64,000 nucleotides of DNA, taken from Tubiluchus corallicola. Taxonomy: Eukaryota; Animalia; Priapulida. Location: the NCBI GenBank assembly GCA_030141605.1, contig JAQGDQ010000147.1, positions 434,530-498,529 on the forward strand, read 5' to 3'. Below are positions 21,001 through 30,000 of this stretch, one piece after another; position 1 is the stretch's first letter; every line of letters begins with the position of its first letter. The notes beneath the pieces were generated by a model that was not told the DNA's origin, searched no databases, and worked only from the letters and a program-made list of their open reading frames with translations. The position numbers and the translations under genes are program-made.

Positions 21001-24000
21001 CACTCAAGTGCAGATTATGTAAAACTTTTTTATCAACTCTCTCAGTTTCCAAGTTTTAAAAAAATCCTTTACCGTAGTCTAGGGAAACCTCATGTTAATT
21101 TTTGTCACTCGGTGGTTTTGAGGTCTTCTGGGTCTGATGTTTAAAAAAAGTGAGTGACTTTTTCAAAAAATGTTGAAGGCCATTTGAAGGTCAAACAGTC
21201 TGAATCAATTTGTGTAAGGATAATTCAAGTCAATTTCTTTTGGTATTGTCACACATAAATATTGCGAAAATATGTTGTATATGTTCTAAAGAGACGTTAA
21301 AGAAAAACTGGAACTAATCTTAAACTATAGCTCAAAACAATTTATCCGATTGAAAAGGAACATTACCGTTTTTTTTCAAGAATGATTTAAGTGAAAGAAT
21401 TATTACCTCAAAAACGTAATTTGCATTTAAGCAGCTTGTTCTTCATTGTTATCTGCATTTCGGCATTAGCTAGTTAGCTTTTCGCTTGTGCCTGCATCTT
21501 GGAAACTTGTTGCACAAAAGAAAGGTGCTATACCTCTCTTTTCAGTTGTTCAGTTATGACATAGTGCACACGTTCGAAAATTCATGCTTGAGCACAGCAG
21601 TAAACTTGAAATTTGAATTTTAAACGTAAAATTTGCCGAGTTTTTGTAAATCATACTGAATGTTGTACAGTAACACCATATTAAGTGTGTATTCCATAAT
21701 TGCTGTGCTTATGTTCACAAAAAATATATAATTTACAAAAACCTCTATTGAAATTGGTAAATTACTTATGACTCAGTTAAAGATAGAAACATTATAACAA
21801 ATACAATCTGAGAGTTGACTTCAACTAGTAGCTGCTAGATTATTATAGGAGAGACAAAGTTTATTATAAAGGTCAATGTCACTACAATATCTTTTTTACT
21901 GAACTTAGGTACTATTTTTCCTTTATATATTGAAATGGCATTATACCTAGCTGTGGTTAAAATGACTACAGCAATTGAACACTGCAATGAAAATTAGAGC
22001 AAAATAAGTCAAATGTTGAACTTGGTAGAAGAAAAAGATGAAGAATTGTCTTGTGGATAGATGGTACTGTACTACATTTAAACTCCAGAACATCAAATGT
22101 TTAACATGCAGCAATTGTCGTTTTATCTGTAATAATAAATTACAGCAATAAGTTTTCAATGAAAAAGATAAGTTTGATAAAGGTACATTACGAAATTAGC
22201 TAACGTGATTATCGTCTATAATTGTACAAAAAAATGACAGCTAAATTGTTCTAATAGCATAAAGTAGTTCAATAAACATAATTAGACACTTACATGTGGT
22301 CTCCCTGAGTTTTGGCACTTATAACTTGCAAGAAAAAACAATAAGAAATCAACAACAACATTCACATCATATCAATTGAATTGCATGTCAGGTAATGTCT
22401 ACCTGGCCAACTACCTGGTCACATGACTGATGACAGTTAAAGGGGCAAGACCAAATTTAATAGGTAGGGAAACGTGTATGTGCTTAACACTGCCCCCATA
22501 AATGTCTCCACGAGCATTTATCACCTAACAAAAAAGCAATCACACGTTCATCATCTGACCTTCAATGAAACACAACTTGTGTATAGGACGTTTAAGAAAC
22601 CCCTCTTTGGTTTTCAAGGTGACACTCCTCACCAGACCATCCTTACTGACGTGGGTTTTTACAACACGTCCAAGCAGCCAACAATTTCTTGGAGTTGTAT
22701 CCATAATTAGAACAACGTCATCCTCCTTGAGATTCTGTTTGTCTTTGTGCCATTTTGAACGTTGTTGGAGCATCGGCAAATACTCTAATTTCCAGCGATT
22801 CCAAAATACATTAGAAAGATATTGTATCTGTCGCCACTTTTTCCTATAAACATCTCCTGCAGAAAACTGACCCAGTGGAAGTATTGGAGGAGCACTTCTG
22901 CCCATCAGAAGGAAGTGGTTAGGTGTTAAAGAATCATAATCATTCGGATCATCAGACGCTGTGGTCAGAGGTCTTGTATTGACTATGTTCTCGACAATAC
23001 AGAATAAGGTGCTCAAACCCTCATCATCAAGTACCTGCTCTTGAGCCACTGAGTGCAGAACTTTTTTAACACTTTTAATTAGTGCTTCCCAAGCTCCTCC
23101 CATATGAGATGCCCGAGGAGGACAAAAGTCCCAATCAATATGTTTCTGAAGTAAGTTTTCCGTGACAACATTGGTGTTCCAAGATTCTACAGACTTTTGG
23201 AGCTCTTTGTCTGCTCCCAGAAAATTACTTCCACAATCAGACATTAGTTTGTCAGGTTTACCTCTTCTGGAGCAAAACCTATCTAGTGCTTTTATGAACG
23301 AATCAGTTGTCATCGTGAACAAAACTTCAAGATGGATGCTTCTGCTAGCCATACATGTGAAAAGGATGCCGTAACGTTTTACTTCTGAGCGACCACGTTT
23401 TACCATAATTGGACCAAAGCAATCAGTACCCACAGTAGCAAACACTCCAGAGCTTTGCAATCTGTCTACAGGCAAGTCAGCCATCTTCTGGTGCAGTGGC
23501 ATTGCCCTATTCAGTCTACATTGTCTGCACTCAGCTAAAAGCTTGCGTACCATGCCACGCATTCCAATAATCCAAAACTTCTGGCGGATCAAAGACATTA
23601 CATGCTGTTTGCCGACATGTCCATGCGTGGTGTGGAAATCTTGGATGACTAAACGTGATAATTTATGTCCTTTTGGTAAAACAATTGGATGCCTCGCATT
23701 ATAGTTGACATCAGCACGCCTTATTCGGCCACCTACACGAATAAGTTGCTTTTCACATAGGAATGGATCAAGTTTCACCAGACAACTAGACTTAATAACG
23801 TTCTGACTAGTGCTTAAGTCTTTATATTCTTTCGGCAAACTCTCTTTCTGCACATACTTGATTATTTCTTCTTCGGCATAGTCGAGTTCTGCAACAGTCA
23901 GTTTGTTTGGAAAACTCGAAGTCTTTTTGGCAACTTTGTTCTTTAGCACTGTTTTGAACCGAAGAAACCATGCAACACTTTTCTTCAACTTGTAGAATGA

Positions 24001-27000: not shown

Positions 27001-30000
27001 TTCAGCATTTTCCTGAATGAATGTTAGCAAATCATAAATACATGGGTTTCTGATTTCATGTTTTGCTATCCTGGACACCACGTCTTTCCATTTATCATGG
27101 AATTTGTATGGCAGTTTTTTAACAATCTGAACGAGACTTGTCTGTGTATTAATTTCGCTGAGATTATTCATTGCTTTCAACGTCTCGACACAGCTTAAAA
27201 GCAAGTCAGCAAATTCTCGCAGCTTCTCGTTGTCATTGACCTTGATTTGGTCTAACTCGATTATTTTTGACATCCAAGCCTGAGTAACCATAAACGAAGA
27301 GCCGAACCTGTCGATGAGTAACTGCTTTGCATGCTTGTATGCTCGACTGGGGTCCATGTAGCTACAACTTTCCACAACTTTTTTGGCTTTTCCAGTGCAA
27401 AATTGCATTAATCTCTGAAACCTTGCAGCCTCATCTTGTGTGTAGCTCTCGACGTTGGCTTCAAAACGTCGCATGAATTGCCAAAAGTTTAGAACGTTAC
27501 CATCAAATTTGTCCAACTCCGCTATTGGAAGTTGCATTGCTTTGTACATGTTGGTATGTTGACGTTGTGCTTCAAGCATGATGTTCATAATCATAGCCAT
27601 GTCATTGCTCTGTGGATGGCATTGATTAGGTATGTCGCTTAAATTATCAGTACAAATGGTAGGTTGAGTAGAATTAAAGGCATAACTATTCTCGCGCGGT
27701 ATATTACTGCCATGCGCTAGTGGAATAAAAGCAGACGCTGATGCATTCAGACACTGATTTCCAGAACTTGGATGCTGCATAGGCAAACGAATATTTTTGT
27801 TTTCCAGCAGTGGCCTAACGTCAGTATCAAAGATCTGTATCCACTTGTTCATTATGTCGAATTCATAACCTTTTTTGCCAACAGGTGGCGCCACGTGAGC
27901 TGTATGCGAATCGTGTTCAATATAGTGCCATGGTTTATGTTGACCTAAAAAATGAGCAATTTTTACATTTTTCCCAAATTGCATTAAAGCTGGTAAATAT
28001 CCGTACCGACCCTGAATGACAGCATTATAAGTGAATGGCAAATGTTTTTCATAACTAGTTGACCAGTCTTTAAAAAACTGTTTCAATAATCCTTGGTCCC
28101 CACCATCAAAAGTACAGGATTCTGATTTAGCATACAACATTAACTTATTATACATATCAATACTTGGTTTGTAAACAAACACACCAGAGTTAAAGCAATC
28201 TGGCCAGCCTACATCAGGGGCAGCTGAAAGCTCTTTAAATCTAAACATGTCATCAACATTATCTAATACAATTGTATCAGAATCTACAAATACACATTTG
28301 CTAAATTGTGTCAACCTCCAACAATGTAGCTTAGTAAAACTCACATTAAGTTCTGGTCTTCCTAACAATTGTAACCTTTTAAACTCATGACTATCAATAA
28401 TACTGACATGTTCAACCAAATCAAATGCATTTCTCAAAAGTGTCATAATATCACAAGAAATACCCTCTGTTACCATGATGACTAAGCATCTCATTGTTCC
28501 TGTGCGACGCAAACTAGAAGCAAGAACAAGTGCTCCCAACGCATACTTATCAGTAGTTGCTAAAGTAACAAAGGCCTCAGACAAGTAATTCTCATCGCTT
28601 TCGCGTGTAGTTTGTGTATGTTTAACTGTCGGATCCGTGTATGTTGACCTTGACCTTAGCCATGCTTTGACCTTTGAGTCTGATGTTCCATGGTCCACTA
28701 ACCTGGTCTCAACATCAGCTGCAGAACCAAAGCTGTCTTCATCACGTTCATCTTCAGAACTACACTCATTCTGCATGCGTTCATGTCGTATTCTCATCGC
28801 TTGGAGTTTGAGTTCTTGTTCTTTAATCATGAGCTCTTGGTTTCTTAGCTTGGCACTCTTCTTCGATGACGTCACACTCGAGGATTTGGTGGACTTTTCG
28901 CTCCTACGTTTCTCTTGCATGGGTTGGTCAGTTGCTATTGAGGGTGGCGATAAATCAGCTGATTCATCTGGAGCGCCTGGTATACAAGGACCGGTTTCCT
29001 GTTGCTTCAAAATTCGTTGCACTAAATTTGCCTTGTTGCCAGAAACCGACAAAGACATGCTACGAAGAATTTGCCTCAGCTCCTCAACTACTTTATTTTC
29101 CAGTTCGCTTTTAGTGAATAACACTGATGCCATTTTCACTTGAAATTAAATTGCTCTTAGTGTCAATTTTGCAAAAAATTTAGGATCACTTTTCAAGACC
29201 GAAGCGCCATCTATTGCCCATTAGCTGACGTGTCCAAGTTCACAGAGTTCATGCAGCTTTACCTGTAGAAACCAGCTACGCTGTAGAAGCCCATAATGAG
29301 CAAAGCTATCAGGTAAGCATGTCAAACTTCCTGCACCTGAACCAGGTCACTGCTTAATGGCAACTTGAAACTCCCGGCGAGGTATATAAAACTGTACTAC
29401 ATTTAAACTCCAGAACATCAAATGTTTAACATGCAGCAATTGTCGTTTTTTCTGTAATAATAAATTACAGCAATAAGTTTTCAATGAAAAAGATAAGTTT
29501 GATAAAGGTACATTACGAAATTAGCTAACGTGATTATCGTCTATAATTGTACAAAAAAATGACAGCTAAATTGTTCTAATAGCATAAAGTAGTTCAATAA
29601 ACATAATTAGACACTTACATGTGGTCTCCCTGAGTTTTGGCACTTATAACTTGCAAGAAAAAACAATAAGAAATCAACAACAACATTCACATCATATCAA
29701 TTGAATTGCATGTCAGGTAATGTCTACCTGGCCAACTACCTGGTCACATGACTGATGACAGTTAAAGGGGCAAGACCAAATTTAATAGGTAGGGAAACGT
29801 GTATGTGCTTAACAGGTACAGTTTTTATATCCGTAACCTTAGCACTCAAGGAGGACCACTGATTCATAATCAAGTACTCAATTAAGGCTAAGCAAACCTA
29901 GGAAGCAGGCCAAAGAGACCTGTTCAAGTGAAACATGGCACGAAAAATTCCCGACTAAGTGGTATTTGAACACAGTTGCCAAGTAAAGCACCACACAGTT

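Follow-up and report, generated by a model that had tools for sequence, protein, structure and literature searches.

The DNA analysed here (the window) is a stretch of 64,000 nucleotides (nt) from Tubiluchus corallicola (Priapulida; assembly GCA_030141605.1, contig JAQGDQ010000147.1, positions 434,530-498,529 of the forward strand). On its reverse strand lies an intact long terminal repeat (LTR) retrotransposon of the BEL/Pao type, a young insertion, in whose Gag region the catalytic core of glycogenin, a glycosyltransferase of family GT8 that primes glycogen synthesis by glucosylating itself, is embedded (Table 1). A single stop-free open reading frame (ORF) of 2197 amino acids (aa) runs from 29133 to 22540 between LTRs that differ at 1 of 422 positions. 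As the initial annotation had reported, the ORF is of this length, the LTRs are near-identical, and the glycogenin core is fused to the rest of this ORF in frame and without an intron, between the SAP/coiled-coil N terminus and the capsid region.

Along the ORF, Pfam matches occur in the order SAP, Glyco_transf_8, DUF1759, protease, reverse transcriptase (RT), Peptidase_A17, integrase zinc finger and DUF5641, and the rve profile matches a piece of the integrase (E 2e-5). Every profile for which a check had been proposed (Glyco_transf_8, DUF1759, RVT_1, Peptidase_A17 and rve) was matched on the ORF or its pieces. The BEL/Pao hallmarks listed in the available part of the Sinbad study (triple Cys-His box, LLDxG and LIG, YVDD, DAS and DD(49)E; PMC554778) are all found in the element, in the order protease (PR), RT, RNase H (RH) and integrase (IN). 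The D-P-G variant of the protease is shared with 29 of 120 relatives, and an integrase spacing of 49 is the commonest among relatives (52 of them). The BEL-specific Pfam set (DUF1759, Peptidase_A17 and DUF5641) is present, and the nearest relatives fall within the same family. Because just 50 nt separate the stop codon from the 3' LTR, the element has no env.

No tRNA-type primer site starting with TGG was found after the 5' LTR, the host tRNA set not being part of this comparison. Joining the sole GTRAGT donor of the LTR (29618) to an acceptor near 29451 yields a 9-nt pairing with the bases directly 3' of the 5' LTR, in the 3'-LTR version of the sequence. With shuffled primer sites, a pairing of 9 nt was obtained in 2 of 300 cases for any junction and in 0 of 300 for this donor. 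Exon 1 supplies only 2 of the 9 pairing nucleotides, and 7 are paired even in the unspliced LTR. The sole LTR mismatch (29450) lies inside the splice-junction pairing, in the 5' LTR.

The identity of the embedded domain is consistent across sequence and fold comparisons. Residues 184/185-445 align with rabbit and human glycogenin-1 (PDB sequences, E 3.6e-84 to 8.5e-82), and Pfam Glyco_transf_8 matches aa 189-405 (E 7.5e-13). In the PDB sequence comparison, glycogenin reaches E 1e-84 versus 3e-26 for the next family, and the top matches of an atlas search are all glycogenin. An AlphaFold2 model of the core (predicted local distance difference test score, pLDDT, 82; predicted template modelling score, pTM, 0.86) matches glycogenin structures with a template modelling (TM) score of ~0.83 and E 7e-32 (Foldseek). 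The domain is a GT-A Rossmann catalytic domain closest to glycogenin, not to other GT8 enzymes. Its identity to animal glycogenins is 50-57%, with a maximum of 57% among the glycogenin matches listed.

The residues retained (human numbering) are D102, D104, N133, D160, D163, Q164, Y195, Y197, H212, K218, K86, R77 and W128. The DxD motif corresponds to aa 284-286, His212 to aa 394 and the acceptor Tyr195 to aa 377, and the dimer contacts Y197, D160 and W128 correspond to aa 379, 343 and 310. Near-invariant columns are retained at 84 of 94, versus modal residues at 65 of 168 columns elsewhere (39%). The catalytic core that had been called complete and placed at 28578-27802 is whole, with close boundaries (aa 185-445), but it is a catalytic domain only. 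The C-terminal glycogen-synthase-binding motif, scanned for with a pattern that we take to represent it, is absent from the ORF and present in 103 of the 120 glycogenin matches listed. The domain is therefore glycogenin-derived and not a full glycogenin. In a GT8 tree (a quick method with 70 rows, none of them named as vertebrate, nematode or cnidarian), the element is a long branch that falls on the animal side without further placement, with a branch length of 0.93 versus a median of 0.21, so that no donor lineage can be named.

Table 1 Features of the element, with positions in the window
Feature	Position	Strand	Details
Whole element	22068..29814	-	7.7 kb BEL/Pao LTR retrotransposon, normal size
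5' LTR	29393..29814	-	422 nt, TG...CA
3' LTR	22068..22489	-	422 nt, TG...CA; 1 mismatch to 5' LTR, at 29450
Target-site duplication, 5 bp	22063..22067 and 29815..29819	.	GGTAC on + strand, both sides
Position of primer site	29384..29392	-	not tRNA-like; 9-nt pairing with predicted LTR splice junction (3'-LTR version)
Polypurine tract	22490..22500	-	directly before 3' LTR
Single Gag-Pol ORF	22540..29133	-	2197 aa, stop-free
SAP domain, aa 16-43	29005..29088	-	Pfam; native to this BEL sub-clade
Ser-rich segment and likely coiled coil, aa 75-124	28762..28911	-	layout resembles Gag N termini of relatives; coil by eye
Captured glycogenin catalytic core (GT8), aa 185-445	27799..28581	-	Pfam, PDB sequence match, fold prediction
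Short conserved linker motif, aa 462	27718..27756	-	native to BEL relatives
Gag capsid region, DUF1759, aa 543-685	27079..27507	-	Pfam
Triple Cys-His box, aa 771-839	26617..26823	-	boxes at aa 771, 806, 825
Aspartic protease	26059..26469	-	LLDPGS at aa 904, LIG at aa 1011; weak Pfam match aa 889-947
Reverse transcriptase core, YVDD at aa 1327	25057..25437	-	Pfam RVT_1 aa 1233-1359, E 0.015
RNase H region, DAS at aa 1510	24379..24873	-	Pfam Peptidase_A17 aa 1421-1585
Integrase: HHCC zinc finger, DD(49)E core (D1904, D1966, E2016), DUF5641	22567..23667	-	Integrase_H2C2 aa 1823-1876, DUF5641 aa 2098-2189

Junctions, copies and probable selection on the glycogenin core

Four public DNA runs from two studies contain more than half of the element's sampled words. 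In the run from the second study (X4), the 5' junction of the core is bridged by a contig covering 28308-29420 and the 3' junction by another covering 27398-28098. The whole core is spanned by a contig of run X2 (27737-28610), which extends 32 and 65 nt past the boundaries given in the initial annotation. Both junctions are thus bridged in contigs, contrary to the assembly chimera that the initial annotation had named as a refuting outcome, and the chimera is rejected on this evidence. None of the 15 joints listed, of 25, skips GT8. The element is not covered end to end by any contig listed, and sample S1 and the window are possibly not independent.

Contig depth, which is a rough guide and not a copy number, is 1053 over GT8 and 926 over the SAP region versus 140 over the flank in X2, and 72-73 over internal sequence versus 11 over the flank in X1. 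In each run, 5-11 contigs exit the LTR end into different flanks, which implies numerous insertion sites, some of them possibly solo LTRs. These observations suggest several copies, most of them with GT8, and the domain likely moves with the element.

Over the LTR (29413-30014), depth in X1 and X2 is ~20-30 times that of the internal region, which suggests many solo or related LTRs, and several internally deleted copies and decayed copies (88-90%) are also present. In X4, the summed contig depth at 27908-28509 is 25,000-32,000, where most of the element has 60-80, and a loose end that resembles an adapter lies at 28174; the library was possibly enriched for glycogenin-like DNA. This anomalous depth over GT8 was left out of the copy reasoning.

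A diverged sample from a third study that bears the same species label (X5), and in which the element's flank is not matched, holds the rest of the element at 85-90% identity. Its GT8 contig of 591 nt aligns gap-free with the window copy at 92.7% identity. The differences listed, 40 of 43, comprise 30 synonymous and 10 non-synonymous changes. The resulting ratio of non-synonymous to synonymous substitution rates (dN/dS) is 0.075-0.15 across assumptions, with a binomial p <= 2e-8 even when the 3 unlisted differences are counted as non-synonymous. From this comparison, GT8 is probably kept by purifying selection. X5 also has a separate glycogenin-like contig of 1065 nt, whose match to the element is confined to 53 nt in the most conserved motif. 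In the codons that flank this stretch, on average 11.5 of 21 residues are identical to those of ordinary glycogenins (152 compared), and 7 of 21 to those of the element. This separate contig is likely the host glycogenin gene, in which case the element's copy would not be a fresh copy of canonical glycogenin.

Place in Gag and searches for comparable fusions

In an RT-RH tree of database proteins (FastTree, 44 rows), the element falls in a clade with all three SAP-annotated relatives (support 98), and its branch is long here as well (0.76 versus a median of 0.30). The nearest polyproteins, 37-44% identical over Gag-RT, come from echinoderms, a nemertean, a crustacean, abalone, fish and contigs. 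The layout common to the relatives consists of a SAP domain or helical bundle, a Ser-rich stretch, a coiled coil, a disordered linker and the capsid. A linker motif, LNxxAxxF/W, occurs in 35 of 89 BEL relatives versus 0.2% of shuffles; it has no Pfam match and is presumably PAM2-like. From this layout and the position of the motif at aa 462, GT8 is therefore inserted in the disordered linker between coil and motif. The domain is found in 0 of the 120 nearest BEL polyproteins, and the 20 of these relatives that were rescanned with Pfam have no enzyme domain before the capsid. The linker motif at 27718-27756 may recruit poly(A)-binding protein.

No second fusion was found among the 120 nearest BEL polyproteins, ~380 glycogenin matches and 80 metagenome loci. 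When the glycogenin region was compared with proteins of 1208-3845 aa, none of the best 120 of 128 matches extended to the non-GT8 parts, and among shorter proteins none of the best 120 of 3297 matches had Gag or Pol parts. With residues 1-860 against 1.84 billion representatives, the best stretch was always GT8 in the best 150 matches (top 305.7 bits), and those newly fetched among them did not match the non-GT8 parts. Metagenome contigs gave no match with a single query; with an alignment query, BEL parts were present in 0 of the best 80 of 369 loci, which are mostly short, transcript-sized contigs. A viral contig collection held no glycogenin relative, an atlas search with residues 1-860 gave no usable match, and the exact sequence is absent from the collection searched. 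The sequence collections searched hold few animal repeats, and Repbase, GyDB and Dfam lie outside these searches.

A literature search, to which subscription papers were mostly out of reach, found no description of glycogenin or GT8 fused in an LTR retrotransposon, and no extra domains in BEL/Pao Gag. No such domain appears in the available parts of PMC3118150, PMC6238403 and PMC8556966, supplements aside. Within the literature and sequence searches made, the earlier statement that no LTR retrotransposon with a glycogenin cargo has been described therefore stands.

The element has the same LTRs, motifs and PR-RT-RH-IN order as BEL/Pao elements (Belpaoviridae; Sinbad/Suzu-like marine lineages), likewise without env, and differs from these relatives in the presence of GT8. 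With animal glycogenin-1 (GT8, EC 2.4.1.186) it shares the Rossmann domain, DxD, His212, Tyr195 and the dimer contacts; here, however, the domain is embedded in Gag, lacks the synthase-binding motif, lies on a long branch and has 10 of 94 near-invariant residues changed. Glycosyltransferases are also carried by viruses, as with baculovirus EGT, Bo17 of bovine herpesvirus 4 (BoHV-4), and the capsid glycosylation of chloroviruses and giant viruses. These cases share with the element a mobile entity that bears a glycosyltransferase, in some instances glycosylating its own particle, but each is a separate gene of a large DNA virus, whereas here a self-priming enzyme is fused in the structural protein of a retroelement. 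A giant-virus GT8 cluster appears at rank 15 of the atlas search.

In the planarian giant gypsy elements Burro/GYPSM1, host domains (MATH/TRAF, BIR, BCL2, SUMO-like and dUTPase) are fused in frame in Gag-Pol, and other LTR elements have extra ORFs after pol, as described in the available part of PMC6431247. Burro/GYPSM1 belongs to a different superfamily, and its cargo is regulatory or nucleotide-related and follows Gag, with no glycosyltransferase named in that part of the article (PMC6431247). In contrast, the present element places a core enzyme of carbohydrate metabolism before the capsid and is of normal size, at 7.7 kb. Captured host domains in LTR polyproteins are thus already known, those that we found described being regulatory domains or nucleic-acid enzymes, and a glycogenin core in Gag is without a precedent found.

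Proposed role and alternative explanations

The explanation that we favour, with a probability of roughly 0.5, is that the captured glycogenin core of Gag likely transposes with the element, is likely under purifying selection and likely serves, on the N-terminal side of Gag, as a domain that glucosylates itself. Its in-frame position is in the variable linker that separates the SAP/coiled coil from the capsid. To reach this position, an intronless glycogenin copy, probably derived from mRNA, would have recombined into the linker and lost its synthase-binding tail; we infer capture from a spliced mRNA only from the absence of introns. The coiled coil and Gag assembly would then crowd GT8 domains into glycogenin-type dimers, in which short alpha-1,4-glucose chains could be assembled on Tyr377 from cytosolic UDP-glucose, with Mn2+. 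Such a short glucan may serve as a tag recognised by glucan-binding (CBM21-type) host proteins. In cells rich in glycogen, such as germ cells, Gag or particles may in this way be linked to compartments that handle glycogen, or become coated.

Parts of this scheme have parallels in published work. The catalytic domain of GYG1 glucosylates itself when isolated, and the CBM21 domain of PTG binds the resulting glucan (available text of PMC9287172). Y195, Y197, D160 and W128 make up the dimer contact, and synthase binding resides in the C-terminal domain (available text of PMC12267440). Autoglucosylation is abolished by D102H and by T83M, as stated in the accessible portion of PMC13671788. Because the tail is absent, the element would neither dock glycogen synthase directly nor be tethered to glycogen through it. 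The likeliest function, which we put at about even odds, would thus be to tag Gag with a short glucan, through which it engages proteins associated with glycogen but does not dock synthase. The selective benefit of such a tag is the weakest link of the explanation. Every Gag may carry the enzyme, as the initial annotation proposed, depending on protease cleavage and RNA processing. In a more tentative extension, which is possible but doubtful, the lineage would glycosylate its own particle in the cytosol, with the core selected in Gag across diverged hosts and maltooligosaccharide carried on Gag, so that particles pass as glycogen granules, or ride them, into the germ line.

If the enzyme is indeed kept in Gag by purifying selection, it would represent a new transposon-host interface, through which the assembly or targeting of particles is connected with glycogen biology. 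The element opens to experiment the question whether a non-enveloped retroelement particle can be self-glycosylated without the secretory pathway. Its GT8 domain also offers a naturally occurring glycogenin core whose evolution was uncoupled from glycogen synthase, and in which the active site is conserved and the surface has diverged fast.

Several observations weigh against the favoured explanation. The 10 changes among the 94 near-invariant columns compare with a median of 1 in ordinary glycogenins, only 1 of 168 of which changes more. One of these residues, N168, is replaced by K (N in 168 of 168 glycogenins and in the X5 contig), and T83 is replaced by S and N12 by T, with a divergent C-loop. 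The T83S form of mammalian glycogenin is active, an activity for which the literature search found no paper. GYG2 illustrates that such a core can be nearly inactive (available text of PMC12267440). Among the copies, the sole X4 contig across GT8 and capsid has a 1-nt deletion at 27508, after which the frame ends 6 codons later; decayed copies often carry frameshifts, here just before the capsid. One X2 contig of single-copy depth (~88%) follows the linker to ~27757 and continues into ~600 unmatched letters, a possible GT8-less sibling of the element. With respect to selection, the X5 GT8 contig is not seen joined to Gag, so that its dN/dS, which departs from the value of about 1 that the initial annotation associated with a neutral passenger, could belong to a host paralog. 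The X5 Pol contigs differ from the window by 11-15%, whereas GT8 differs by only 7%. The synonymous codons of GT8 are also more T-rich than those of the rest of the element (79% versus 64%, p 0.0006), and this unblended codon use fits a more recent capture.

An alternative is that the host has a fast-evolving intronless glycogenin paralog that was captured recently and rides neutrally in the element, the dN/dS reflecting the paralog. The X5 data accord with such a passenger in that GT8 is joined to Gag in no X5 contig and is less diverged than Pol, although the gap in X5 cover at 28559-28982 proves nothing either way; so do the codon use, the possible GT8-less sibling and the frameshifted X4 contig. 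This reading nevertheless requires a further, unseen long-branch paralog beside the ordinary glycogenin of X5. It also sits poorly with the presence, in what depth suggests are most S1 copies, of an insertion that keeps the frame, has no stop and is cut down to the folded core, and with the long RT-RH branch, which is expected if both parts evolved together. We regard it as rather unlikely. A GT8 domain selected inside the element but weakly active or inactive, acting as a Gag dimerisation module or as a decoy that pairs with host glycogenin or binds oligoglucan, like GYG2 dampening glycogen synthesis, would account for a dN/dS of ~0.1 with dimer residues retained, for the changed near-invariant residues, including N168, and for the divergent C-loop. 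GYG2 itself barely autoglucosylates yet acts on synthase (PMC12267440, in the part available). A pure scaffold, however, would not need the metal-, donor- and acceptor-site residues, all of which are retained on a long branch, and the change at N168 is missing from the X5 relative and so may be recent; we consider a scaffold unlikely.

A benefit to the host appears very unlikely. A domesticated or tolerated family could supply additional primer for glycogen, perhaps in the form of a truncated SAP-coil-GT8 protein, and both the X4 contig whose frame ends just past the linker and the greater conservation of GT8 than of Pol relative to X5 point in that direction. On the other hand, the near-identical LTRs, target-site duplication, intact Pol motifs and many LTR flanks are those of a mobile family, not of a fixed gene, and the synthase-binding tail is absent. 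That the fusion is an assembly chimera, or a one-off nested insertion of a glycogenin pseudogene, is scarcely credible: the architecture is found in no database searched, but contigs of the second study cross both junctions and one of the first study covers the core, the frame is open through both junctions, and the GT8 contig depth matches the element and not the flank.

Elsewhere in the window

On the forward strand, a 2795-aa open frame at 36374-44761, apparently one exon, encodes ~66 EGF repeats of 37 aa with a 111-nt period and recent block duplications. This frame has a Cys-rich, WAP-like end and, by eye, a C-terminal hydrophobic segment. A 153-aa frame on the reverse strand (4789-5668) ends in zinc-knuckle-like motifs; by eye it has the look of a decayed non-LTR ORF1, with a weak Pfam match only. 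Finally, glycine/tyrosine-rich repeat coding stretches that resemble structural glycine-rich proteins are found in opposite orientation at ~49829 (-) and 63648-64000 (+).

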